DNA of 64,000 nt from Gammaproteobacteria bacterium (GTDB lineage Bacteria > Pseudomonadota > Gammaproteobacteria > SZUA-229): assembly GCA_016744065.1 (NCBI GenBank), contig JADGFA010000002.1:28796-92795 (forward strand). The letters are read 5' to 3'. The notes below the pieces were generated by a model. The model was not told the DNA's origin. It searched no databases and was given only the letters and a program-made list of their open reading frames with translations. Each line of letters opens with the position of its first letter. Within the stretch, counting starts at the first letter, position 1. The position numbers were made by a program, and so were the translations under genes. This document shows, piece after piece, positions 33,462 to 53,800 of the stretch.

Positions 33462-34499
33462 TTACTGGTTCTTTTCAAGGCTTTGAATTTTCTTGCTTAC
33501 TTTTTTTGCACGATTAATGAGCTGTTTTATTTCTGTGTTTTTGGGCTCTAGTTGCAGCGCCTGTTGCCATACTTTTAGTGCGCGGTTAATTTTATTTTTA
33601 CTGTAAAGCTCTTTGCCAAAGCGTATTTTACTTAATGTAAGCTCTTTTATTTCTTTATTTAAAGAGTCTAACAGGCGTTTTGTTTTTTTGTGCGCAGGGT
33701 TGATAGTAAGTAGTGTATTAAGGTGTGATCGTGCCTTGTTGTACGCATGCTTTTCATATGCGGTGCTGTATGATGTGAGTAATTCATTATAGCGTTTTTG
33801 ATCTGATTTATTTTTTAATTGAACATCAATTTTTGTAACCCATGATTCTTTTTGTTCTGTAGGGTCCAGTTTGTTTGATAAAAAATAGCAATCACGCGAA
33901 ATTATATAATGTTTATTACTTTTAGCTTGATCACCACACATTTCAAGGTGTCGAGCCACTTCAATTCTGTCTTTATTGTAGCGACTTATGTCGAATTGAG
34001 CACTATAGTCCCATGGAATTAGTTTATGTAATTTTTTGTATATTTTCTGGTATGAAATTAATGCATCAGCCTGCTTCATAAGCATGTCTTTTCTTAGTGT
34101 GGTGACTTGATGGTCTCTCTCATGAAGTAGTTCAGTTTTTTCTTTGTTAAGCCTCGGCTCATTTTCTATTTTCTTAAGTGCATTGTTATAAGTGTCGAGG
34201 GCTTGTTGCCATTCATTTGATTGCTTTAATTTTTTAGCTTTTTTTGATGTGTTCTCAATAAATGTGCTTTTCTTTGTATCAATAGTGTATTTTTTGTTCA
34301 GAGTTTCTTTAAGTGTACTGTCATTTTTACTGGCACTTTGCAGGGCATCATTAATTTCATCAAATTCATTATTGGCAAGCCATTGCTCAATGTTCTGCTC
34401 AAATGATTCAGGAGATGTGTTGATCAGAGAGCACGCTGGCATAAACAAATATGTGAGCAAGATAAGAGTGGGCCGATTAATAAGTATGGAAATATTCAA
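33462..34499 (-). CDS. TPR-repeat putative lipoprotein
   Basis: Hydrophobic N-terminus ending PAC; WQQALDTY, ALKVWQQALQLEPKN; ATGA overlap with cyclase gene. Confidence 0.72.
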   Translation of the reverse strand: MNISILINRPTLILLTYLFMPACSLINTSPESFEQNIEQWLANNEFDEINDALQSASKNDSTLKETLNKKYTIDTKKSTFIENTSKKAKKLKQSNEWQQALDTYNNALKKIENEPRLNKEKTELLHERDHQVTTLRKDMLMKQADALISYQKIYKKLHKLIPWDYSAQFDISRYNKDRIEVARHLEMCGDQAKSNKHYIISRDCYFLSNKLDPTEQKESWVTKIDVQLKNKSDQKRYNELLTSYSTAYEKHAYNKARSHLNTLLTINPAHKKTKRLLDSLNKEIKELTLSKIRFGKELYSKNKINRALKVWQQALQLEPKNTEIKQLINRAKKVSKKIQSLEKNQ

Positions 34500-36010
34500 G
34501 TACAGGACTCAGTTAGATTACTCAGAATGTTATTTATCTGTTGTTCCATAAGCTTTTTGTGATCAGGTTTAACACTATCAACTAGCCAGGTAGATACGGG
34601 GTGTTGTTTTCCGCGGACACGAATGACTTTATGCTTATTCGCAATTATATGTTTGGAGATACTACTCTGTTTGTACAACTCTTCAAGAATAATTATCTGG
34701 TCGCTTTCGGCAATGCCAGCTAGCCGTGAAGCAATGTTGACTGGATCTCCAATTACAGTGTATTCCATGCGGTCATTTGATCCAAGGTTTCCGGCTATCA
34801 TAGCGCCACTGTTAACGCCGATTTTAAAGTGAATAGGAATTTTGTTTTGTGTTAAGCGTATGTCATTAAGTTTAGTTACTGTTTCACGAATCATAATAGC
34901 GCAGTTTACTGCGTTGAGGCTATGGTTTTCAGAGTAGTCTGGAACACCAAAAACAACCATGGCACAGTCACCCATAAACTTATCAATGTGTCCATTATGC
35001 AATTTTGCAATGATTGCAATATGTGAAAAATATTCATTGAGTAGATTTGTAATTTCTTCAGGCGGCAATTTTTCAGAAATGCCGGTAAAGCCAACAATAT
35101 CTGCAAACAAAACAGATGCTGTTATGTGCTTTCCACCTAATTCAATATTATCCAGATTTTTTAAAAGTTTTTGTGCAACATTACTGGATACATATCGAGA
35201 GAAAACATCTTCAACCTGAGTTTTTTGTAATAAGCCATGAGCCATCTGGTTGAAGGCGCAGGCAAGCTCACCAATTTCATCATTGCGACGTTCATTTAGG
35301 CGAAATTTAAAATCACCTTTACCTATTGCTTTGCTGGCGTCAACCAGATTATGTATAGGCTTGGATAAATGTCGGCTCATGACAAATGCGAGTAATATAG
35401 CAATTAGACTCATTAGTATGGTTGCAAAAATAATAACAAATCGTGAGTTTTTTAATGATTGAACCATTTGCTGTTTACTGAAGGTGATAATTATATGTCC
35501 AGCAATGAGTTGCTTAAATTTGATTGGGCTATCAAAACAGATTAATTTATCGTGAGGGTTTGTGACTGTGCTCCATTCAAAAATATGAGAAGTTTTTTTA
35601 TTGCTTAACTGATGCTGAATATATCCTATGGATGGCGTCAATCCATTTTTTACCAGAATTTCATTTTGGTCAGAAATTACAATAGCACCTTTGATGCGCT
35701 GATTGTCTACTAAATTATTGACCAGTGTTTGCAGGCCAAGTGTATCGCCAGAAAGTACCATTTCTGAAGCGCTAATTGAAACTTGTCTGGCAACGGTTGA
35801 ACCCATATCATTAATCTGTTGGTTTAAAACTATTTTCTGGTTTTCCAGAATAATAAAGCCAAGAGTTGACATACCACTTACGATTAGTAATGTAATGGCA
35901 AGGGCTAGCTTTATAGCAATGGGAACTCTTATTTTAAAGCGATTGTCATTGTTTACTGGAGGTATCTGTTTTGTGTTCGGGTTCAAATCATGCTCATTCA
36001 TTAAATTCAT
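34496..36010 (-). CDS. Membrane class III adenylate cyclase with HAMP domain
   Basis: 2 TM, HAMP (DEIGELACAFNQM), LFADIVGFT, IDKFMGD, YTVIGDPVNIASRL. Confidence 0.9.
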   Translation of the reverse strand: MNLMNEHDLNPNTKQIPPVNNDNRFKIRVPIAIKLALAITLLIVSGMSTLGFIILENQKIVLNQQINDMGSTVARQVSISASEMVLSGDTLGLQTLVNNLVDNQRIKGAIVISDQNEILVKNGLTPSIGYIQHQLSNKKTSHIFEWSTVTNPHDKLICFDSPIKFKQLIAGHIIITFSKQQMVQSLKNSRFVIIFATILMSLIAILLAFVMSRHLSKPIHNLVDASKAIGKGDFKFRLNERRNDEIGELACAFNQMAHGLLQKTQVEDVFSRYVSSNVAQKLLKNLDNIELGGKHITASVLFADIVGFTGISEKLPPEEITNLLNEYFSHIAIIAKLHNGHIDKFMGDCAMVVFGVPDYSENHSLNAVNCAIMIRETVTKLNDIRLTQNKIPIHFKIGVNSGAMIAGNLGSNDRMEYTVIGDPVNIASRLAGIAESDQIIILEELYKQSSISKHIIANKHKVIRVRGKQHPVSTWLVDSVKPDHKKLMEQQINNILSNLTESCT

Positions 36011-39614: not shown

Positions 39615-40271
39615 ATGTCAGGAATGAAACGTATAGTTGTGATTAATACCAAAGGTGGCTGTGGTAAAACAACGGTTTCAACCAGTCTGGCCAGTTATTA
39701 TGCATCTAGAGGTATTAATACCGCACTATTTGATTATGATCCTCAAGGGTCAAGTATGCGCTGGTTGAAACTTCGTAACGACAGTATGTCTGATATATAT
39801 GGTGTTGTCGCGCATAGAAATTCTGCCAAGGCGGTTACGATGAGCTGGCAGCTCAGGTTACCGCCTGAAACTGAACGAGTCATTATCGACACGCCTCCAG
39901 GCTTAAAAGGCCCAGAACTTAGAGAGCAATTAAAGGGGGTGGATAAAATATTAATACCCGTTTTACCTTCTCCGCTTGATATTTTTGCTACGGCCGATTT
40001 TATTCGTGATTTATTGCTGGATGTTAAAGTCAGGTTAAACCAGACTAGTATAGGCATTGTGGCAAATCGTGTCAGAAAGAATACGGTTGCTTTTCAATCA
40101 CTTGAGCGCTTTTTAAGTTCATTAAATATTCCGGTAGTTGCTAGTTTAAGGGATACACAGAATTATTTACGAGCTACTGAGGAAGGTATGGGTATACATG
40201 AGTTAAAAGGTAAAAACGTGTACGTAGACAGAATGCACTGGAAGGCGGTTGCGGAATGGCTTGATAAGTGA
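39615..40271 (+). CDS. ParA/MinD-family ATPase (orphan)
   Basis: NTKGGCGKTT, DYDPQGS, IIDTPPG, PVLPS; no parB nearby; start uncertain. Confidence 0.88.
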   Translation: MSGMKRIVVINTKGGCGKTTVSTSLASYYASRGINTALFDYDPQGSSMRWLKLRNDSMSDIYGVVAHRNSAKAVTMSWQLRLPPETERVIIDTPPGLKGPELREQLKGVDKILIPVLPSPLDIFATADFIRDLLLDVKVRLNQTSIGIVANRVRKNTVAFQSLERFLSSLNIPVVASLRDTQNYLRATEEGMGIHELKGKNVYVDRMHWKAVAEWLDK

Positions 40272-40301
40272 GTACGTCTGAATATTACACAGGCTTAAAT
40301 T

Positions 40302-40328
40302 AAGAGGCTCGCTTTAGGTGAGCCTCTT
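40302..40328. terminator. Bidirectional terminator-like hairpin
   Basis: aagaggctc...gagcctctt between convergent genes. Confidence 0.6.
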
Positions 40329-40341
40329 TCTATTTTCGAGA

Positions 40342-41001
40342 TTAAATATTACCTGTATGGCGGAAAATACCCAGTCCCGCCAGTCCGGATAAAAATAAAT
40401 ATAACGCTGCTGGTAAAGGAACGAGAACAGGTGCATTTAAGCCGATGGCATATGACATTAATGATGTTTCGTTACCTAAATTAACCTGAATATTATTTAT
40501 ACTCTGGTTCAAGTTAACATTGAAATCGTTCAGATCAAGAAAAATAACTGAAAGATCAGCCGTTCCTAAAGTGCCATTTGGTAATAATATGTCTGTTACC
40601 AGATACTTTTCTCCATTTGGTCCAGGGTTTACAAATGGATCATCATTAACAAACAATTGTCTTGAGGTGATTGGGCCGCTATTAATACCATTGATATTGA
40701 CAGAAACCGTGTTATTAGCGGTAATAAAAAATAAGGCAAGATCATTTCCATTCTGATTTGACAGGGCTGTATTTTCAAAATTTAAAAAAACAGCTGCATC
40801 GATTGATGTGCCTTTAATGTATGTGTTTACAAGAGAGTTTGTAATTGCTCCGTTGGTGTTTTCAAAAACAGAGCCAGTGAAGCTTGATGAGGTTGCGCCT
40901 GCGTCTGTGTCTAGTCCATATGGTCCAATACTAATAGGGGCTGCGAATGCTTGTGCAGAAAAAATAGCTGTTGCAGAAAGTAATAATCGTAATTTTTTCA
41001 T
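40342..41001 (-). CDS. VPLPA-CTERM (PEP-CTERM variant) sorted surface protein
   Basis: Signal peptide (AFA); Asn/Ser/Thr-rich body; C-terminal VPLPAALYLFLSGLAGLGIFRH. Confidence 0.88.
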   Translation of the reverse strand: MKKLRLLLSATAIFSAQAFAAPISIGPYGLDTDAGATSSSFTGSVFENTNGAITNSLVNTYIKGTSIDAAVFLNFENTALSNQNGNDLALFFITANNTVSVNINGINSGPITSRQLFVNDDPFVNPGPNGEKYLVTDILLPNGTLGTADLSVIFLDLNDFNVNLNQSINNIQVNLGNETSLMSYAIGLNAPVLVPLPAALYLFLSGLAGLGIFRHTGNI

Positions 41002-41062
41002 TTTTATTTCCCAAATTGCATATTATCAATACCTGGCGCTGGGTTGATAATTATTCCTTGCT

Positions 41063-41380
41063 TTAAAATTGATTAACGGGCGTTGTTGGTGTGACAACAG
41101 GTGCGATAACTACGCTGGTTACCTGAGGGGCGTTAGGTGTTACTGGTGGAGCAGTGCGAAATGTGAGTATCGCTTCACGTAAAAAAGCAGAATTTTCATT
41201 AGGCCGAAAATTCACATCCGGTGTCTGGGCGGGGGGTGGCGTTACCTGAGCAACTGGCCCTGCTGCGGGTTGAATGCCTTCGGCCCATTCACCCCATGTG
41301 TATACAGAATCCTGCTGAATTGCCATTGCTTGAATGGGCAATAATATTGCGAATGTAAATAAAATTGTTTTTTTCATCAT
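41063..41380 (-). CDS. Small secreted Pro/Thr-rich protein with PAAG motif; candidate T11SS cargo
   Basis: Signal peptide (AMA); DSVYTWGEW..IQPAAGP; lies downstream of the Slam-like gene. Confidence 0.7.
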   Translation of the reverse strand: MMKKTILFTFAILLPIQAMAIQQDSVYTWGEWAEGIQPAAGPVAQVTPPPAQTPDVNFRPNENSAFLREAILTFRTAPPVTPNAPQVTSVVIAPVVTPTTPVNQF

Positions 41381-41413
41381 ATTTAAGACCTAAATTTTGT
41401 AATAAAAATACAG

Positions 41414-41428
41414 GCAAATCCAGTGCCA
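41414..41428 (-). promoter_or_regulatory. Sigma54 -24/-12 promoter
   Basis: Minus strand TGGCACTGGATTTGC (GG-N10-GC), about 35 nt upstream of ATG 41380. Confidence 0.7.
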
Positions 41429-41586
41429 CAAAAAATAAACAACATTTTAAACAAATGCTTAGGCTAGTTGATTATAAAATGTGGGTGATCCTTGTCTTGG
41501 GCGCTCCTTCCCATTGTAAGAGAATTATAATTATCGTGGAGCCTCTGTCCATACCCCATTTGAGTGGCTTATTAGAGGGGAATATC

Positions 41587-41599
41587 TAACTCATTGATT
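41587..41599 (-). promoter_or_regulatory. IHF-binding site
   Basis: Minus strand AATCAATGAGTTA fits WATCAANNNNTTR; upstream of the sigma54 site. Confidence 0.5.
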
Positions 41600-41795
41600 T
41601 TATAGGTGAAGTTTGAAATGTATTTGTCATTTTTCAGATGAATAGTGGTTTATATTCAGGCGCTCTATTGTAAATATTATCGACATGATGCACGGTTTAT
41701 TGACGCTTTATATTTAAACAAAGAGAAATTGTCTTTTTCAGGTTTATCATGCTTATTTATATGCTTTAAGTGTACTAATAATGGTTTTTTTCAGG

Positions 41796-43061
41796 TTAAA
41801 AGAAATAGCGACGTAAATTGATTTCAAATATATTGCGATCATAGGTGAAATCATCCAGATTTGAGTCATTATCTGTAAATGTATACTGGGTATTTACAGT
41901 CCATGACTTGAGAAATCCGCCGTGGAAGTCATGGCTTATACCCAATACAGCCAGTAACTCGGTTTCATTGCGTTTCTCTGTGTAACCTTTTGTGATGTCG
42001 GCCGCTTTATATCTGTAGTCACGGCTGCTTAATGTTAAATATGCTCGAGCATTTTCCCAGGCAGGTATCTGGCCACCGAAGTATATTTCACCACCAGTCG
42101 AATGGAGTGCACCATCTTTAGCGCCATTATTGTGATATTTAATGCCTGCCTGTAAGCCGATAGACTGATCAGTATAAAATTTGGCAATATCTATACCCCA
42201 TACTGTCATAGTGCCGGTCAGACCTTTGTCTTCCTGTTGATCGTACTCACGGGCTGTCGTGGTATTTTCAAATGTGATCTCAAGGTCTTCCTGAATACTG
42301 TAGGTGTAAAGTGGGTTGATACCTGCGTATTTTGCATAATCGTCTTTGCCGAATATAAGCTTGTCCAGTTTAAAATTGAAGGCAGCACGCCAGCGCTTTT
42401 CTTCAGAAATGAAGGCAGGGCCTGTGCTAAGTGATAATACTGAGAGGTTAAATTCAGTATTATCAGATCCATATGCTTTGCTATAGGCTGTGGCCTGGGT
42501 TTGCCATTCAAAGTCAACAATAGAGTTATTAATATGCATAGCCTGGCTGGCACGTGAGCGATGTGAATAGGTGAACATAAACTGCCCGCCGCTGCCATTT
42601 TCTTCGGATGATATATTGGTGTTGCCTGTTATATCTTTTCCTGGGCCCAGATTTATATTTGAATCAGTGAACATGCCTGCTGATATATACATGGATGATG
42701 TGGAGCGTTGGGCGGCTGTTTTGATATCACCAGATAACTGAGCCATATATGCGGTTACCGATAATTTAACTTCATCCGGAGTTTCGGGGTCATTTAAAAC
42801 CTGACTTAACTGATCTTTTGCATCTTCATAGCGGCGGGTTAGATGATAAGAAATGGCAAGCTCAAGGCGCGCGCGATTAAGGCTGGGCTGGTTGCTTAAT
42901 ATGGTTTCAAAGAGCTCAATAGACTTAAACAGCTCTCCATTTAAGCGATAACGCATTGCTTCATTAAATAAAACTTCTGGATCTACAGCCTCTTCAGCAT
43001 AGGTGTTAGGCGAAGCTAATGCCATGTATAAACAAGCTGCCACCAGAATTTTCCTGATCAT
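41796..43061 (-). CDS. Slam/DUF560-like (type XI secretion) TPR plus beta-barrel outer-membrane protein
   Basis: Signal peptide, TPR with RARLELA, DSNINLG, amphipathic strands, terminal RYFF. Confidence 0.78.
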   Translation of the reverse strand: MIRKILVAACLYMALASPNTYAEEAVDPEVLFNEAMRYRLNGELFKSIELFETILSNQPSLNRARLELAISYHLTRRYEDAKDQLSQVLNDPETPDEVKLSVTAYMAQLSGDIKTAAQRSTSSMYISAGMFTDSNINLGPGKDITGNTNISSEENGSGGQFMFTYSHRSRASQAMHINNSIVDFEWQTQATAYSKAYGSDNTEFNLSVLSLSTGPAFISEEKRWRAAFNFKLDKLIFGKDDYAKYAGINPLYTYSIQEDLEITFENTTTAREYDQQEDKGLTGTMTVWGIDIAKFYTDQSIGLQAGIKYHNNGAKDGALHSTGGEIYFGGQIPAWENARAYLTLSSRDYRYKAADITKGYTEKRNETELLAVLGISHDFHGGFLKSWTVNTQYTFTDNDSNLDDFTYDRNIFEINLRRYFF

Positions 43062-43298
43062 TTAAGTACTCTCAAAGTGATTTTGCGTGATATTGACGTT
43101 TTTTATATATATTTACAAGGGAAAACGTACAGTTATTCCACCTGGTCGAGACTTATTCTGATTAAATAAGCCATTTATTAAATATAATTATCAGGTGTAA
43201 ATGTTCTACAATTTGCCGTTAAGTTATTGTATTTGTAAGCTGCTCAAAGTGTGTCTGAGTATGTGTCTGGTTCATATTATTGTTAAGAGGAGGGTTAT

Positions 43299-43931
43299 TT
43301 GAGCTGTAAAAACAGATATTGCTTATACGGGTATATTTTTTTGTTTGTTTTGCTGCCTGAGGTTGTTCTTGCAGGACTTTTTGGGTATCAGTCAAATGAG
43401 CGTGAAAATTTAAAACTGTTTCCTCAATGGTTATCGGTTTTAGAACGTAATATTAAACAAAAGGCATTAGAAGGAAACTGTGAAAATAACAGGCTTGATC
43501 ATTGTCATGTTAGAGACTGGTTGAGGTTTTTAAAAAGCATTCAGTCGCTTTCAAAAATGCAACAGATAAATAAAGTTAATTTATATGCTAATGAGCATGA
43601 CTATCTTCTGGATATTGAGAATTACGGAGTAAAAGACTATTGGGCGACACCACGAGAGTTTTTATATAATAATGGTGATTGTGAAGATTACGCAATAACA
43701 AAAATGCTATCCCTTAAGATGCTTGGTTTTAATATGCAGAGTATTAAGCTGGTGGTATTACAGGATACAAATTTAAAAATTCCACATGCGGTTTTAGCTT
43801 TATATATTAAGGACGATATATTAATAATGGATAATCAGGTAGACGAAGTTATTTCACATAAACATATTTTGCATTATGTTCCTGTATATGCCGTTAATGA
43901 AAAAAAGTGGTGGATGTTCCTGCCTCAATAA
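43299..43931 (+). CDS. Transglutaminase-like cysteine protease (BTLCP/LapG family)
   Basis: Signal-like N-terminus; DYWATPREF, GDCEDYAITK, HAVL, IMDN (Cys-His-Asp triad). Confidence 0.9.
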   Translation: MSCKNRYCLYGYIFLFVLLPEVVLAGLFGYQSNERENLKLFPQWLSVLERNIKQKALEGNCENNRLDHCHVRDWLRFLKSIQSLSKMQQINKVNLYANEHDYLLDIENYGVKDYWATPREFLYNNGDCEDYAITKMLSLKMLGFNMQSIKLVVLQDTNLKIPHAVLALYIKDDILIMDNQVDEVISHKHILHYVPVYAVNEKKWWMFLPQ

Positions 43932-43965
43932 GAGGGTCTTTTAAAATTTAAATAAGTAATATTGT

Positions 43966-45987
43966 ATGAAAGTTAAAAATAATGCATTTAAAATAAAGTT
44001 CCCCCCCGTATTGGCAAGTGTATTTTTGGGCCTATTTATTGTAATAAGTTTATGGTTGATATTTGAGTATGCGGAAAAAGAAAAAAATCGTGATTTGACT
44101 AACTGGCAGTCACGTCTGGCGCTATTGGCTGAGATAAGATCGGCGGCTGTTGAAGACTTGATATGGAAGCAAAAAAAACAATTAAAAAAACTGGCTGAAA
44201 ATACAAGTCTCAGGTTGTTTCTATCGGAGTATAATAATAGAGATAAAGTGAATGAAGTCGTATTGAGTGCAGTGCAGGGGCATGTGAGGAATTTGTTAAG
44301 GGCGAGCGCAGGAAGCTTTGGATTTCTGGAAAATATAACGGCTATTAAGAAAAACAGTTCTGGTGAGTATGGTCTTGCGGTACTGGATAAAAAGCAAATA
44401 CTGGTTATGTCTACAAAAGGTTTTCCTGTCGATATTGAAGCGCATAAAGCTGTAGTTAAAAAAACATATAATGCAGCGAAAATACAGGTAATTGATCTGT
44501 ATTCGGGTGAGAGCAAACAATCGGTCTATGGATATATTATGCCTGTTTTTCAGGTTCAGGACATTGAATTAATAGAGCCTGTAGGTGCAGTTATATTGTT
44601 ATTGAATCCGCAGAAAGATTTATACCCAATATTGAAAAACAGACAAAGTATAACCGGTTCAGATGAAAGTTTACTGGTGAGGCAGGAAGGTGCCAGTCTT
44701 GTTTATATAAGCCCGATAAAAGAAGATTATAATTTATTTCATCGCCTTCCTGATAATAATAATCAACTGGCATCGTCGTATGCTTATCATAATCCAGGCG
44801 GTTTCAGGGAAGTTCAGGACTATCGAGGTAACAATGTGTTGGTTACCGGGCGAGAAGTTAAAGATACGCCCTGGAAACTGGTTCAGAAAATTTCAGCGTC
44901 TGAGGCGTTAGCTGAATCAAATAGCCATCAGACGTTTTTGTTAACAACATTTATCTTATGTGTTTTTTTTGTAGCAATGGCCTTTGTCGCAATTTGGCGG
45001 CATAGTACCAGTTTAAGATTACAGTCTTTGAGTAATGTGCTTGAGGCGCGGACTATTTTGCTCGATGCAGTTACCGATAACATAAAAGATAATATTATTT
45101 TACTGGATCAGAACTCAAAAATTATCTTTATGAATTCTGCGTTTTCACATTTATTGTCGATAGATATTGATGAAATAAAATCAAAACATATAACCAGTGT
45201 GTTAGGCAAGGAAACGGCAGAACGATTGATAAATAGTATATGTGCTGATACTAAAACCTGTGTTATGTCTTTGCAGATTGATTCCTGTGAACGGGTATAT
45301 CATGTGGTCTCTACGCGACTGGTTTATGGTGAGCACCAAAGTGCTGTGTTATATGTGTTGCATGATATAAGTGAATTAAAACAGGAACAGGAAAAGCGTG
45401 AGCAATTGGGGCAGGGTATCATTGGGACTCTGGTTAAAGCGGTGGATATGCATGATCCGTATTGCATAAATCATTCTGCACGCACCCGGGATGTTGCAAT
45501 CGCGATTGCTAAAGAAATGAATTTAACTGAGATGCAGTTAGAGTCGCTGGAAATGGCGGCTTTATTAGCAAATATAGGTAAGTTGTATGTTCCAAAGGAA
45601 ATACTGACTAAAATGGAAGCGCTATCTGATAACGAATCAAAACAGTTGAGAAAACATATTGGGTTTGCTGTCGATATATTATCTGAGCTCCCTTTTAGTG
45701 GGCCTGTGGTTGATATTATTTCACAGAAAAGTGAGTTCCTTGACGGCAGCGGCTATCCAGAAGGGCTGGCAGGTAGTGACATTATGCTTGAATCGAGAAT
45801 ACTGGCTGTAGCAAATGCATTTGTCGCCATGGCTAGCTCACGGGCGTATCGTGAAGGGCGAGCGGTAAAAGAGGTGGTGGATATACTTCTGGAGCAATCT
45901 GAGTCACATTACGATCGCCATGTTGTTGCTGCTTTATTTCATATTTCAGAGAATAAAGCAGACTGGAAAACGTGGCAGAGAACATAG
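43966..45987 (+). CDS. Membrane dCache-PAS-HD-GYP protein with degenerate active site
   Basis: 2 TM around a periplasmic domain ending WKLVQKI, PAS (..VLHDISE), DGSGYP and RAYR kept; HD is AN, HHE is KSE. Confidence 0.85.
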   Translation: MKVKNNAFKIKFPPVLASVFLGLFIVISLWLIFEYAEKEKNRDLTNWQSRLALLAEIRSAAVEDLIWKQKKQLKKLAENTSLRLFLSEYNNRDKVNEVVLSAVQGHVRNLLRASAGSFGFLENITAIKKNSSGEYGLAVLDKKQILVMSTKGFPVDIEAHKAVVKKTYNAAKIQVIDLYSGESKQSVYGYIMPVFQVQDIELIEPVGAVILLLNPQKDLYPILKNRQSITGSDESLLVRQEGASLVYISPIKEDYNLFHRLPDNNNQLASSYAYHNPGGFREVQDYRGNNVLVTGREVKDTPWKLVQKISASEALAESNSHQTFLLTTFILCVFFVAMAFVAIWRHSTSLRLQSLSNVLEARTILLDAVTDNIKDNIILLDQNSKIIFMNSAFSHLLSIDIDEIKSKHITSVLGKETAERLINSICADTKTCVMSLQIDSCERVYHVVSTRLVYGEHQSAVLYVLHDISELKQEQEKREQLGQGIIGTLVKAVDMHDPYCINHSARTRDVAIAIAKEMNLTEMQLESLEMAALLANIGKLYVPKEILTKMEALSDNESKQLRKHIGFAVDILSELPFSGPVVDIISQKSEFLDGSGYPEGLAGSDIMLESRILAVANAFVAMASSRAYREGRAVKEVVDILLEQSESHYDRHVVAALFHISENKADWKTWQRT

Positions 45988-46313
45988 TATTGAATTAGTT
46001 GCCAGTTAAGCTTAAGGAGTGATATGTATGTCTGAACAGGAATTAAGCTTTATTGTGTGCCCTGAGCTTTAGTGCTGGCCCAGATGTCGTAAAACAACAG
46101 ATTGGGTTGAGCCCAGAGTTTACGGCGAATTTACTATGGAGTGTTGGTGTTAGTATGTTTAACTAATACTATAAGCCCCGCAGCATATTTACAGGGTGTT
46201 TTTAGTGAAAAAATAAGTATATTAGTATTAACTGTTTGTTTTTTATTCAAATGACAGACATTATCCTATATTAGTAAAAATAAATGAGCACAAGTCAGGA
46301 GCTTGCTACAGAC

Positions 46314-48398
46314 ATGTATGAATCTTTTTATGGGCTTACGGAAAAGCCATTTACATTATTGCCTGATCCGGATTATCTGTATCTGAGCCAAAAGCATCAG
46401 CGGGCGTTGACGCTTCTTGAATATAGCATGATGAACCAGGCTGGTTTTAGTGTTATATGTGGTGATACGGGTGCAGGTAAAACAACCCTGATTCGACGCC
46501 TCCTGGTTGGGCTGGGTGATGATACTAAAGTTGGTCTGATAACTAATACGCACCATGCGTTTGGTGAGCTGCTTAATTGGGTGCTTATGGCATTTGGCCT
46601 GGATGGTGAAGGCCAAAGTAAGGCGCAAATGCATCAGATGTTCATTCGTTTCTTAATTGAGCAGTATGCGCAGAAGAAACATACTGTTTTGATCGTCGAC
46701 GAAGCCCAGAATATGAATGCAGATACATTGGAAGAGCTGCGCATGTTGTCCAATATTAATGCAGATAAAGATCAGGTATTACAGGTTATTCTTGCTGGGC
46801 AGCCGGCATTACGCGAGACGTTACGTCAACCTGAATTAATGCAGTTTGCGCAGCGTATAGCGGTAGATTATTATCTTGAGTCATTAAGTATTGAAGAAAC
46901 TAATGCTTATATTCATCATCGCCTGAAAGTTGCCGGAACGGAAGCGTCCATTTTTACTGAAGCGGCTTGTGAAGCAATATATAAATACAGTGGTGGTACC
47001 CCTCGTTTAATTAATCTGCTATGTGATACAGCACTTGTATATGGTTTTGCCGAACAAAATAAAACGATTGGTGAGCAGCTGATACATGATGTTGTGAGCG
47101 AGCAGCATAGTAACAGTATTATCCCTGCATTTAATACGGGCCAGCCGGCTCAGGACTCAGTGTTTTCAGCTGACAATATAACGCAACAATCGATAAATCA
47201 GTCAAAAACAGAAATAGAGCAGAAAGCTAATGCACAAAGAACGGTTGATAAAAAACAGGAAGAAAAATTAGTTAGTGCAGAGCAGCAGGTAATTAAAAAA
47301 GATGTGGCTGAAATATCAAAAAAATTATTTCAGCAGGCGAGAGGTGTGGAGCAGCTTGTCCCTGTGGTTCATTCGGAATCTCAGGTGAATATAGAAAAAG
47401 TCCATACTCAGAGTGCAGCCATAGATGAATCAAATGTAAGGCCGATAAAAGCAACACGCCCGTCAGAAAGTAAAACGGATGAATTTAAAATAGAAGATGA
47501 AGGAGTACAGCCTGAGGGTGCAGTAGATTCTGAAGGAAACCTGGAAGAAGGTGTAAGCAGTAAAAGTTCATTTATAGATATTGATAAGCAGCCCCCTGAA
47601 GCAAGCATAGTTGATACGGATGCCGCGCCTCTGTATATGTCACAAAGAAAGTATGATGAGGATGTTTATCATCCTATGATACATATTGAAGAAGGCCCGG
47701 GAAAGGGGCTTAATATGATTATTATAGGTGTAGTGGGGGGGATGTTTATTGCGTCTTTGATAATGATGATTGCAGCCTGGATGATGTTTGGTTCAAGAGA
47801 GAACACTAGCCAACAGGAAGTACGACAAAATGCGCGGCAGCAGCCACAATGGGAAGTGGAAAACCGAGAACTAAAAGCATTACAGAAAGAACGTGATGCT
47901 GCAATAGCCGTAACACGGGCACTGGAAAGAGAGCGTGATGCCGCAATAACCACCGCCCGGGTACAGGAAGAAATACGTGCTGCTGAAATGCGTGCCGCAG
48001 AAATATTAGCAGCACAGGAGCAGCGGGCGGAAGTAAAATTAACGCGGGCGAAAGCACGTATCAGAGAGGCAGAACGAGCTGAATCCAGGGCACTGGTTCG
48101 TGAGCGTGAGATGCAGCGCAAGGCGGAAAGAAAAGAGGCTGAATTAAAAAGTGAGCGACTGAATATGTTTCATAAGGAGCAGGCTCGTTTAGAAGTGCTG
48201 GTTGTCGAAAAGGAAATGTCAGCCCGGCGATTACAGGCAAAACAGGTCGAGCAGAAAGAAGTAAAAGAAAAGCCTGTTGAAGAGGCAATAGTTGAGCCAG
48301 ATGTTAAAAGCAAAATTAAAGAAAAGGCAAAAAAAAGATTTTCATCTAACCCCTGTAATAGCCCTTCTGCGAAATTCCTTTCAACATGTAAAAAATAA
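46314..48398 (+). CDS. ExeA-like AAA ATPase with TM segment and coiled-coil tail
   Basis: MYESFYGLTEKPF..PDP, GDTGAGKTT, LIVDEAQ, GGTPRLINLLCD; TM, E/R/A-rich coil, C-terminal NPCNSPSAKFLSTC. Confidence 0.85.
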   Translation: MYESFYGLTEKPFTLLPDPDYLYLSQKHQRALTLLEYSMMNQAGFSVICGDTGAGKTTLIRRLLVGLGDDTKVGLITNTHHAFGELLNWVLMAFGLDGEGQSKAQMHQMFIRFLIEQYAQKKHTVLIVDEAQNMNADTLEELRMLSNINADKDQVLQVILAGQPALRETLRQPELMQFAQRIAVDYYLESLSIEETNAYIHHRLKVAGTEASIFTEAACEAIYKYSGGTPRLINLLCDTALVYGFAEQNKTIGEQLIHDVVSEQHSNSIIPAFNTGQPAQDSVFSADNITQQSINQSKTEIEQKANAQRTVDKKQEEKLVSAEQQVIKKDVAEISKKLFQQARGVEQLVPVVHSESQVNIEKVHTQSAAIDESNVRPIKATRPSESKTDEFKIEDEGVQPEGAVDSEGNLEEGVSSKSSFIDIDKQPPEASIVDTDAAPLYMSQRKYDEDVYHPMIHIEEGPGKGLNMIIIGVVGGMFIASLIMMIAAWMMFGSRENTSQQEVRQNARQQPQWEVENRELKALQKERDAAIAVTRALERERDAAITTARVQEEIRAAEMRAAEILAAQEQRAEVKLTRAKARIREAERAESRALVREREMQRKAERKEAELKSERLNMFHKEQARLEVLVVEKEMSARRLQAKQVEQKEVKEKPVEEAIVEPDVKSKIKEKAKKRFSSNPCNSPSAKFLSTCKK

Positions 48399-53527: not shown

Positions 53528-53800
53528 TTATTCTAAAAAAACCAGACCAATGCCGTCGGGTTCGTGTCTTACTACTTTTGCCCTGTTTACGGGGGGCTCT
53601 TCACCATCTCCTAATTGATTTTTAAGGCGAACTTTCACTTCGGTATCGACAGAAGGTAATTCAATTTCATCAAGAATCAGGTAAAGGCCACCATCACTGA
53701 TATTGCGGGTGCGGACATCAATTGTATCCTGCCCAGGAAGTGTGAGTTCGATATCGACAATAAGCCCAATGCGTAGGTGCTTTCTATTTTCAGCAGACAT
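53528..53800 (-). CDS. Stand-alone PilZ-domain protein
   Basis: RKHLR (RxxxR) and NISDGG (D/NxSxxG) intact. Confidence 0.9.
   Translation of the reverse strand: MSAENRKHLRIGLIVDIELTLPGQDTIDVRTRNISDGGLYLILDEIELPSVDTEVKVRLKNQLGDGEEPPVNRAKVVRHEPDGIGLVFLE

Follow-up and report, generated by a model that had tools for sequence, protein, structure and literature searches.

The open reading frame (ORF) at 43966-45987 (+) of the window, a 64,000-nt stretch of a gammaproteobacterial genome of the SZUA-229 lineage (assembly GCA_016744065.1, contig JADGFA010000002.1, positions 28,796 to 92,795), probably encodes a cyclic di-GMP (c-di-GMP) receptor of the type of DvhD from Desulfovibrio vulgaris, which controls a periplasmic cysteine protease of the BTLCP family and is likely to act through it on a small secreted protein with a PAAG motif at a Slam-like outer-membrane pore. 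The gene starts with ATG and is one uninterrupted 673-codon frame, the latter as stated in the original prediction, which had proposed a pseudo-enzyme receptor acting inside-out in the manner of LapD. Its HD-GYP domain has lost the metal ligands and kept most of the residues that clamp the dinucleotide in DvhD, so that it is predicted to be a binding module and not a phosphodiesterase. Binding of c-di-GMP without turnover, splaying of the stalk helices and control of the BTLCP are most likely shared with DvhD, from which they are transferred by homology.

The residues that bind metal in active HD-GYP phosphodiesterases are replaced in the receptor. Its translation reads ...MAALLANIGKLYVP... 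around A535-N536, and ...IISQKSEFLDGSGYPEG... and ...ILAVANAFVAMASSRAYREG... at the other motif stretches, within a C-terminal third of ...MAALLANIGKLYVPKEILTKMEALSDNESKQLRKHIGFAVDILSELPFSGPVVDIISQKSEFLDGSGYPEGLAGSDIMLESRILAVANAFVAMASSRAYREGR... In HMMER alignments, the AN of the receptor was placed beneath the HD of V-cGAP3 (5z7c, AALLHDIGK) and PmGH (4mcw, AAPMHDIGK), the KS beneath their HH (AHHEKLDGTGYP, EHHERWDGTGYP), and N617 and V620 beneath the D..D of the active enzymes (D-x-F-D-A, as in ADIFDAL and SDVFDAL), while the letters of DGSGYP and R-x-Y-R were unchanged. The original prediction had LLANIGK in place of LLHDIGK at 45568-45573, exactly where the codons of A535-N536 lie, together with QKSE for QHHE, AVANAFVAM for AVADxFDAM, and unaltered DGSGYP and RAYR, and all of these readings were borne out by the translation and by the alignment to 5z7c and 4mcw. 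Six further HD_5 matches are present in the same genome. Four of these six paralogues carry intact HD, HHE and D..DA, and the remaining two contain HHE, with the HD region outside the alignment.

The replacements are shared by the relatives of the receptor. Among 120 homologues obtained by a word-seeded search (32-75% identity), A535 was found in 116 sequences, N536 in 119, K588 in 114, E590 in 118, N617 in 111 and V620 in 118. The expectation that orthologues would share AN and KSE was thus correct for A, N, K and E, and incorrect for position 589, which is usually N (103 sequences) and S in 11. The retained positions were equally constant, with G594 and G596 in 118 sequences, Y597 in 115, P598 in 117, R626 in 118, Y628 in 116 and R629 in 118. 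None of the 120 close homologues contained HD, HH or D..D, nor did any of the best 150 full-length relatives (identity of at least 29%, E≤3.7e-69) from an exhaustive phmmer search over 1.84 billion representatives. In these 150 sequences the HD position is xN in 143 (MN 72, AN 24, LN 15, CN 14, and others), and the D..D position is N..[VI] in 136. On a midpoint-rooted FastTree phylogeny of the 142 sequences with at least 600 amino acids (the 8 shorter ones of the 150 being dropped), an AN/CN clade of 34 members including the window protein (support 0.998) was separated from an MN/LN/VN/IN clade of 108. The replacement by Asn is therefore old, as the xN sequences are split into two large clades.

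Mean column identity in the 120-sequence alignment was 0.75 for the HD-GYP domain (64 of 153 columns at or above 90%), 0.53 for the PAS domain and 0.58 for the periplasmic domain; the HD-GYP domain was slightly exceeded by just two parts, the short stalk at 0.79 and the C-terminal tail at 0.76. The gene is single-copy and stop-free in 10 of 11 genomes of the same genus, the genome without it being 68% complete, and single-copy and intact in 18 of 24 genomes of the same family; a sample of 16 genomes from other families in the class gave no match at E≤1e-60. The claim of targeted substitutions without decay is consistent with these values, the replacements being near-invariant and the HD-GYP domain one of the best-conserved parts. 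Judged by its sequence conservation, the receptor is a maintained pseudo-enzyme and not a decaying gene, with the dead motifs apparently under selection.

It is very improbable that the HD-GYP domain is still enzymatic, turning over c-di-GMP, cyclic GMP-AMP (cGAMP) or pGpG by means of H503, H564 and E590 or with another arrangement of metals. These three residues are retained in 118, 98 and 118 of the 120 homologues, respectively, and align with conserved residues of active enzymes, and metal centres are known to vary among HD-GYP proteins, including the bi-metallic PA4781 (4r8z) and the tri-nuclear PmGH (4mcw), both matched by the receptor. However, the ligand positions H, D, H/H and D have become A, N, K/S and N in a pattern that is conserved over 270 sequences, and H564 is not kept in the wider family, its column containing S in 64, A in 32 and H in 27 of the best 150 representatives. 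Moreover, according to PMC13090378, DvhD with its equivalent losses has a site without metal density, and neither its HD-GYP fragment nor its PAS/HD-GYP fragment hydrolyses c-di-GMP with any ion tried.

The relation to DvhD, on which the reading as a receptor depends, was evident in both sequence and fold. The best solved sequence relatives were 9rc0 (E 2.6e-43, query residues 358-661) and 9rbz (E 3.7e-34), which are the PAS/HD-GYP and HD-GYP fragments of DvhD (DVU1020; PMC13090378) and which outranked the active HD-GYP proteins 5z7c, 4mcw and 4r8z. An AF2 model of the receptor, built from the 120-sequence alignment (predicted local distance difference test score, pLDDT, 82.9), has an N-terminal transmembrane (TM) helix that extends as a long helix, after which come a periplasmic domain of mixed alpha/beta fold, another TM helix, the PAS domain, a stalk helix at residues 469-496 and the HD-GYP bundle. 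In Foldseek searches against PDB the model matched 9rc0 at rank 1 (E 2.7e-19, TMt 0.71), followed by four 9rbz chains (TMt 0.87-0.90, 36-37% identity), and at rank 12 the periplasmic dCache domain of DvhD, 9rc2 (E 3.6e-8, TMt 0.72, 15% identity), after which came the classical dCache sensors PctA, Mlp24 and CtaA. As the model matches 9rc0, 9rbz and 9rc2, the architecture of DvhD, described as dCache-TM-PAS-dead HD-GYP (PMC13090378, PMC10990149), extends over the full length of the receptor. Profile searches were in agreement for the cytoplasmic part: the Pfam HD-GYP model HD_5 gave an E-value of 1.4e-41 (142.5 bits), and TIGR00229 gave 26.6 bits (cut-off 22.9) for the PAS domain, for which Pfam PAS_9, PAS and PAS_8 matched slightly below their cut-offs. 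Pfam dCache_1 was not matched by the window receptor at E≤0.01; a precomputed PF02743 match is present on many of its homologues. Hydrophobic segments were located by hydropathy at about residues 7-37 and 320-348.

The c-di-GMP contacts of DvhD given in section 10 of PMC13090378 (construct numbering, chain index + 373) were mapped onto the receptor by sequence alignment. Six of the eight contacts of the canonical site are identical, Y523, L577, Y621, M646, R650 and Y652 of DvhD corresponding to Y499, L553, Y597, M622, R626 and Y628. Two are changed, K582 to S558 (with K559 adjacent) and E668 to Q644 (with E643 adjacent). Within the 120 homologues, L553 was present in 119, M622 in 117, R626 in 118, Y628 in 116 and Q644 in 106 sequences. 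With K582 and E668 changed, the preferred ligand of the receptor may be c-di-GMP, 3'3'-cGAMP or pGpG. For the cytoplasmic fragment of DvhD, a Kd of about 322 nM is reported for c-di-GMP, which causes the isolated HD-GYP domain to dimerise and its stalk helices to splay (PMC13090378). DvhD also confers c-di-GMP-dependent control of the BTLCP DvhG in Pseudomonas fluorescens (PMC10990149).

The 120-sequence alignment has six invariant columns, and five of them (G207, E234, R296, W303 and E313) fall in the periplasmic domain, pointing to a conserved periplasmic interface or ligand site. This bears on a rather improbable alternative, according to which the protein would be an outside-in sensor, its dCache domain binding a periplasmic ligand and the PAS and dead HD-GYP domains signalling to a cytoplasmic partner, for example as scaffold or trigger and whether or not a nucleotide is bound, and the BTLCP would not be the output. 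Such a role would suit the invariant columns, the typical function of dCache domains as ligand sensors and the resemblance of the model to the ligand-binding domains of PctA, Mlp24 and CtaA, and ligand binding by the dCache domain of DvhD is unresolved in section 9 of PMC13090378. It is opposed by the conservation of the dinucleotide contacts and not of the catalytic residues, by the control of DvhG that DvhD exerts in a heterologous host, and by the gene neighbourhood: the loci compared showed no cytoplasmic partner gene that is conserved, and a BTLCP gene is adjacent in all 60 assessable ones, as described below.

The protease gene upstream of the receptor ends with its stop codon 34 nt ahead of the receptor start. 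Its product contains a hydrophobic segment at residues 7-31, the motif GDCED (C128 at 43680-43682), H163 and D178. In comparison with LapG of P. fluorescens (4u65_E, E 1.7e-16), GDCEDYAI, H163 and D178 were aligned, as they were with 4fgo. D127, C128, D130, H163 and D178 are invariant in 56 orthologues, and E129 is conserved in at least 90%. The acidic residues flanking the Cys in DvhG, D316 and E318, bind calcium, and their equivalents are present in the window BTLCP together with the Cys-His-Asp triad. The score against the NCBIfam LapG equivalog NF045674 was 78 bits, far below the cut-off of 320, and the protein is therefore a BTLCP but not a LapG equivalog.

In total, 75 related loci were retrieved from species-representative genomes with patterns built on the dead motifs. 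In all 60 loci in which more than 700 nt precede the receptor gene, a BTLCP gene was directly upstream and on the same strand, the gap being 0-179 nt in 56 loci, with a slight overlap of the estimated start in 4. The predicted position of the orthologues beside BTLCP genes was therefore found wherever it could be assessed. Together with the relation to DvhD, this arrangement supports a pseudo-enzyme receptor comparable in kind to LapD, as originally proposed; the support is by homology to DvhD, at E 2.6e-43 and with all three crystal fragments. In two Desulfobacterota-type loci without a nearby Slam-like gene (L073 and L077) the BTLCP-receptor pair is preceded by two ORFs, which judged by eye encode a protein of about 460 amino acids with a receiver-like N-terminus (response regulator) and a 554-aa membrane protein.

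Divergent from the BTLCP gene is a gene for a putative outer-membrane pore with a signal peptide, a TPR domain (residues 28-117), a 14-strand beta-barrel (120-420) and a C-terminal ...RRYFF (AF2 pLDDT 90.5). The window protein scored 32.5 bits against Pfam TPR_Slam (PF24575; cut-off 35.2). Among 46 orthologues, TPR_Slam matched all and SlipAM/DUF560 (PF04575) matched 24, both at E≤1. When a profile of the 46 members was compared by hhalign with the bona fide SlipAM protein of the genome (contig C21), the probability was 98% (E 2.3e-13) over 375 columns, covering both TPR domain and barrel. A profile search of the family against PDB sequences returned TPR proteins only. Slam-like genes were identified in 57 of the 75 loci, and in 46 of the 51 loci with more than 2300 nt upstream. 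In Gamma- and Betaproteobacteria, 53 of the 57 are divergent-upstream; the 4 others, in Desulfobulbia-type loci, are adjacent with a different orientation. The bona fide SlipAM/DUF560 protein (442 aa) belongs to a separate locus (contig C21 39185-42657; L086 3186-6658), where its gene is followed by one for a 681-aa secreted protein of unknown family, and which is without BTLCP and HD-GYP genes.

The small secreted protein, encoded immediately downstream of the pore gene, consists of a signal peptide, followed by IQQDSVYTWGEWAEGIQPAAGPVAQ... and a Pro-rich tail. The motif WGEWAEGIQPAAG recurs in related loci as ...DSVYxWGxWxxGIxPAAG in close relatives, ...YVDSVxKWGAWELDIEPAAGG in other Gammaproteobacteria, ...DSVxQWGPWEDFVEPAAG in Azonexus and Rhodocyclaceae, and ...LSVYEWGPWAVMARPAAG in Desulfobulbia. 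With the search pattern W[GSA]xW-x(3-9)-P[AES][AS]G, 50 matches were obtained in 45 of the 75 loci, every one beside a Slam-like gene, and 47 of the 50 read PAAG. Of 46 assessable loci, 45 encode the motif protein after the pore; in 11 others the contig ends at most 456 nt past the pore gene, and locus L036 has the variant ...EPASA. In six frames of the whole 3.88-Mb genome the pattern occurs once, at the ORF of the small protein. The motif agrees with the site class [T/A/P]AAG, which according to section 7 of PMC13090378 is cut by LapG and DvhG between the two alanines.

The betaproteobacterial motif proteins are longer (425-484 aa) and end in a C-terminal barrel like that of TbpB_B_D and Slam-dependent lipoproteins. 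All four of those tried matched NF041636 with E-values of 7e-9 to 7e-6, all below its cut-off, and two of the four scored 26.2 and 26.0 bits against PF01298 (cut-off 26). This barrel links the motif protein, as cargo, to the pore in one lineage at least. The two Desulfobulbia motif proteins and one other gave nothing significant, and an ESM Atlas look-up of the 105-aa protein was uninformative (top scores 0.75-0.76). In five Azonexus/Rhodocyclaceae-type loci (L066, L067, L069, L070 and L071), two tandem long PAAG-cargo paralogues are located downstream of the Slam-like gene.

If the receptor works as DvhD does, c-di-GMP bound to the HD-GYP dimer would splay the stalk helices, and the splaying would pass across the membrane to the periplasmic domain, which would restrain the co-transcribed BTLCP (43299-43931). 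As c-di-GMP falls, the BTLCP would be freed and would cut the small protein between the alanines of ...WGxW(x5-7)PAAG (PA/AG). The small protein is probably handled by the adjacent Slam-like pore, and may be threaded through it or held via the short N-terminal WGxW segment; a cut at PA/AG of the pore-held protein would therefore release it at low c-di-GMP, as we propose. The module would thus decide whether a surface protein associated with the pore is retained or released, and would not do so for a giant adhesin of a type I secretion system (T1SS). A more far-reaching version, to which we give somewhat less than even chances, is that the five-gene cassette constitutes an undescribed form of c-di-GMP-gated surface display, in which the pore exports or holds a protein whose short N-terminal WGxW...PAAG segment serves as a periplasmic tether, possibly seated on the TPR domain of the pore, and is severed by the BTLCP when the receptor is free of c-di-GMP.

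Several observations weigh against these proposals. In the receptor, a phosphate contact (K582) is S558 and a base-specific contact (E668) is Q644, the bridging site of DvhD is only partly kept (P567 as P543, K520 changed to H496, and R569 to E545), H503, H564 and E590 are retained as noted above, and the periplasmic domain is just 15% identical to that of DvhD, for which the manner of restraining DvhG is itself unsettled in the Discussion of PMC13090378. The 75-locus set is blind to orthologues with an intact HD, whose absence rests on the 120- and 150-sequence sets. For the pore, the window protein had no Pfam SlipAM match at E≤1, no solved Slam structure was found for comparison, and Foldseek searches with the model returned generic outer-membrane barrels only. 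Five Desulfobacterota-type loci contain the BTLCP-receptor pair and no Slam-like gene within the fetched flanks. The 105-aa protein is devoid of the C-terminal barrel carried by known type 11 cargo, and a cut at PAAG would take only about 19 residues off the mature protein, whereas LapA has a folded retention module.

Some of these points are also accommodated if the DvhD/DvhG-type pair is real and its target is elsewhere, such as the canonical Lap adhesin or another surface protein, with the pore, the PAAG protein and the VPLPA-CTERM protein as an unrelated co-travelling cassette. We regard this as unlikely, though the least so of the alternatives. It would explain the five loci without a Slam-like gene and the missing cargo barrel, the substrates of DvhG and LapG are interchangeable between the two proteases (section 7 of PMC13090378), and a cadherin-repeat adhesin of the genome carries ...EPTAAG at residues 104-109. 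The operon of that adhesin, however, already includes a LapG and a LapD. Furthermore, the position of the Slam-like gene next to the BTLCP-receptor pair in the 57 loci having it, the PAAG protein following the pore in all but one of the assessable loci and the uniqueness of its motif in the genome all argue for a local target.

The canonical Lap locus is complete and lies on contig C54 25015-37536 (locus L087). It comprises an OEP-family protein with extra Ig/cadherin and OmpA domains, a BTLCP (LapG), LapD (LapD_MoxY_N, GGDEF and EAL), an ABC transporter, HlyD, a LuxR-type regulator and the cadherin-repeat adhesin, which runs off the contig and reads ...LSELEPTAAGNN at residues 101-112, with TAAG at 106-109. 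PF16448 was matched in the genome on C54 only, and 36 GGDEF matches were found in the genome. The two BTLCPs share 34% identity over 122 residues. With this locus in addition to the module of the window, the genome therefore runs two BTLCP-receptor modules. A giant adhesin as the target of the window module was rejected, since none of the 16 closed ORFs of at least 1500 amino acids contains [TAP]AAG in its first 250 residues, and so was the sole TAAG adhesin, the gene of which lies in the canonical Lap operon. Neither a T1SS nor a giant adhesin is encoded among the 53 ORFs of the window.

The gene of the VPLPA-CTERM protein is the last of the minus-strand set, and in 24 of the 28 short-form loci with at least 1000 nt downstream, the next gene likewise encodes a protein of about 215-240 amino acids with a VPLPA/PEP-CTERM tail. 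One exosortase (EpsH family) is encoded in the genome, on contig C30, far from the locus. In the sigma-54-type element of the 415-nt spacer upstream of the small-protein gene, the GG and the GC are shared by all 7 aligned intergenic regions, and the pattern was found upstream of 22 of 49 cargo genes in the loci, a stretch of 450 nt being expected to contain it 0.01 times. Expression of the cargo gene may therefore be driven by an enhancer-binding protein. In a general promoter and terminator consensus scan, sites were no more frequent than in shuffled sequence. Rfam produced no match at E≤1 over 40000-46500, so the long intergenic region upstream of the small-protein gene contains no known c-di-GMP riboswitch or other Rfam family. 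Right after the stop codon of the Slam-like gene, at about 41700-41735 (-), an inverted repeat CCGACA-N(about 12)-TGTCGG was present in 6 of 7 aligned loci, which may be a terminator or operator; the window copy has a recognisable second arm (TGTCG) only.

The ATPase gene downstream of the receptor encodes an N-terminal AAA_22 domain, a low-complexity region, a TM segment at residues 474-504 and a long Lys/Glu-rich tail, and three paralogues of the ATPase part are present in the genome. It was rejected as a core part of the module because no more than 19 of the 75 loci, all of them from closer relatives, have it downstream of the receptor, and its membership is uncertain. Within 10 kb of the module are also a 90-aa stand-alone PilZ protein (53528-53800, -) and a HAMP-adenylate/guanylate cyclase (34496-36010, -), which add to the nucleotide-signalling genes nearby.

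Table 1. Features of the receptor gene and its neighbourhood, in window coordinates.
Feature	Position	Strand	Evidence or remarks
Probable DvhD-type receptor gene, 673 aa	43966..45987	+	TM1, periplasmic dCache-like domain, TM2, PAS, catalytically degenerate HD-GYP
Periplasmic dCache-like domain, residues 37-320	44074..44925	+	Foldseek to 9rc2; flanked by two hydrophobic segments
Cytoplasmic PAS domain, residues 366-470	45061..45375	+	Pfam, TIGR00229, model
Degenerate HD-GYP domain, residues 489-653	45430..45924	+	Pfam HD_5, Foldseek 9rbz
A535-N536, replacing HD metal ligands	45568..45573	+	HMMER alignment to 5z7c, 4mcw
Q587-K588-S589-E590, replacing xHHE	45724..45735	+	HMMER alignment
G596-Y597-P598 (GYP), kept	45751..45759	+	Y597 = DvhD Y621, phosphate contact
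N617...V620, replacing D..D (AVANAFVAM)	45814..45825	+	HMMER alignment; AVANAFCAM in DvhD
R626-A-Y628-R629, kept	45841..45852	+	R626/Y628 = DvhD R650/Y652, c-di-GMP contacts
BTLCP (LapG/DvhG-type) periplasmic cysteine protease, 210 aa	43299..43931	+	Pfam Peptidase_C93, E 3.9e-18
Slam/type 11-like outer-membrane protein, 421 aa	41796..43061	-	AF2 fold, TPR_Slam, hhalign; divergent from BTLCP gene
Small secreted Pro-rich protein, 105 aa, candidate protease substrate and pore cargo	41063..41380	-	Conserved motif; directly downstream of pore gene
Motif W29-G41 of the small protein	41258-41296	-	PAAG at 41258-41269
Sigma-54-type -24/-12 element, TGGCAC-N5-TTGC	41414..41428	-	Upstream of small-protein gene, in 415-nt spacer
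Sigma-70-like promoter, TGGACA-N16-TATAAT	41524-41551	-	Same 415-nt spacer
VPLPA-CTERM (PEP-CTERM-type) sorting-signal protein, 219 aa, secreted	40342..41001	-	TIGR03370, 26.5 bits (cut-off 25.35)
AAA_22 ATPase, 704 aa, XrtA/PEP-CTERM-associated-like	46284..48398	+	TIGR03015, 297 bits (cut-off 324.5)

The concept of such a receptor has already been published in 2024-2026 for DvhD; the Slam-linked cassette and the coexistence with a canonical Lap system are new. In a full-text literature search, LapG was not found together with DUF560 or 'type eleven secretion', Slam or the type 11 secretion system (T11SS) was not joined with BTLCP terms, 'surface lipoprotein assembly' was not found together with c-di-GMP, and T11SS and c-di-GMP co-occurred only in two general reviews. 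The main texts of two bioinformatic papers on T11SS (PMC12282271; bioRxiv 10.1101/2020.01.20.912956) contain no mention of c-di-GMP, HD-GYP or transglutaminase. DvhD and DvhG are discussed in PMC13090378 for Desulfovibrionales, and its readable supplements, a class-level figure aside, name no hosts of the Gammaproteobacteria, Betaproteobacteria or Thiotrichaceae.

The receptor class is large and old, comprising at least 150 clusters at 50% identity, all without the catalytic residues and 143 with Asn for the Asp of HD, and it reaches Gamma- and Betaproteobacteria, beyond the sulfate reducers that were supposed to be its main hosts. The presence of LapD/LapG and DvhD/DvhG-type modules side by side in one genome raises the question of how receptors of possibly different affinity share the work. 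If the pore and the PAAG protein are functionally linked to the module, c-di-GMP-controlled periplasmic proteolysis would be a general means of releasing surface proteins and not a peculiarity of T1SS adhesins, and a candidate cargo and a candidate regulator would be at hand for the environmental type 11 systems, the cargo of which is largely unknown. The surface-display version, if true, would provide the first regulatory link from c-di-GMP to type 11 secretion, would transfer the Lap/Dvh logic, in which a protease releases an anchored protein, from T1SS adhesins to another secretion system, and would mean that such a module runs parallel to the canonical Lap system in this genome.

Compared with known systems, the receptor has the fold, the GYP loop and the R-x-Y-R of active HD-GYP phosphodiesterases (PmGH 4MCW, V-cGAP3 5Z7C, PA4781 4R8Z), in which the metal ligands HD, HH and D..D are present, whereas all three are replaced here. 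The pore resembles Slam/T11SS proteins (PMC12282271; bioRxiv 10.1101/2020.01.20.912956) in combining an N-terminal TPR domain with a 14-strand barrel; its family is divergent, however, and the presumed gammaproteobacterial cargo is barrel-less, Pro-rich and about 100-180 aa long. With LapD and LapG of P. fluorescens, as described in PMC3032553 and PMC3032545, the proposed module has in common the use of a degenerate c-di-GMP-metabolising domain as receptor, inside-out signalling and a BTLCP protease cutting a di-alanine site, but the window receptor is without LapD_MoxY_N, HAMP, GGDEF and EAL in the Pfam scan. The closest likeness is to DvhD/DvhG (DVU1020/DVU1019 of D. vulgaris Hildenborough; PDB 9RBZ, 9RC0, 9RC2), with which it shares the order dCache, TM, PAS and HD-GYP, the loss of the HD and HH ligands, the third motif AVANAF[VC]AM, the BTLCP immediately upstream and the site class [T/A/P]AAG. 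The HD motif and the double His are replaced by SQ and MN in DvhD (PMC13090378) and by AN and KS here, and the motif LSQVGK of the DvhD type is absent among the best 150 representatives of the receptor family. In place of the T1SS and giant adhesin of the DvhD/DvhG system, the window locus contains the Slam-like pore, the small PAAG protein and the VPLPA-CTERM protein.

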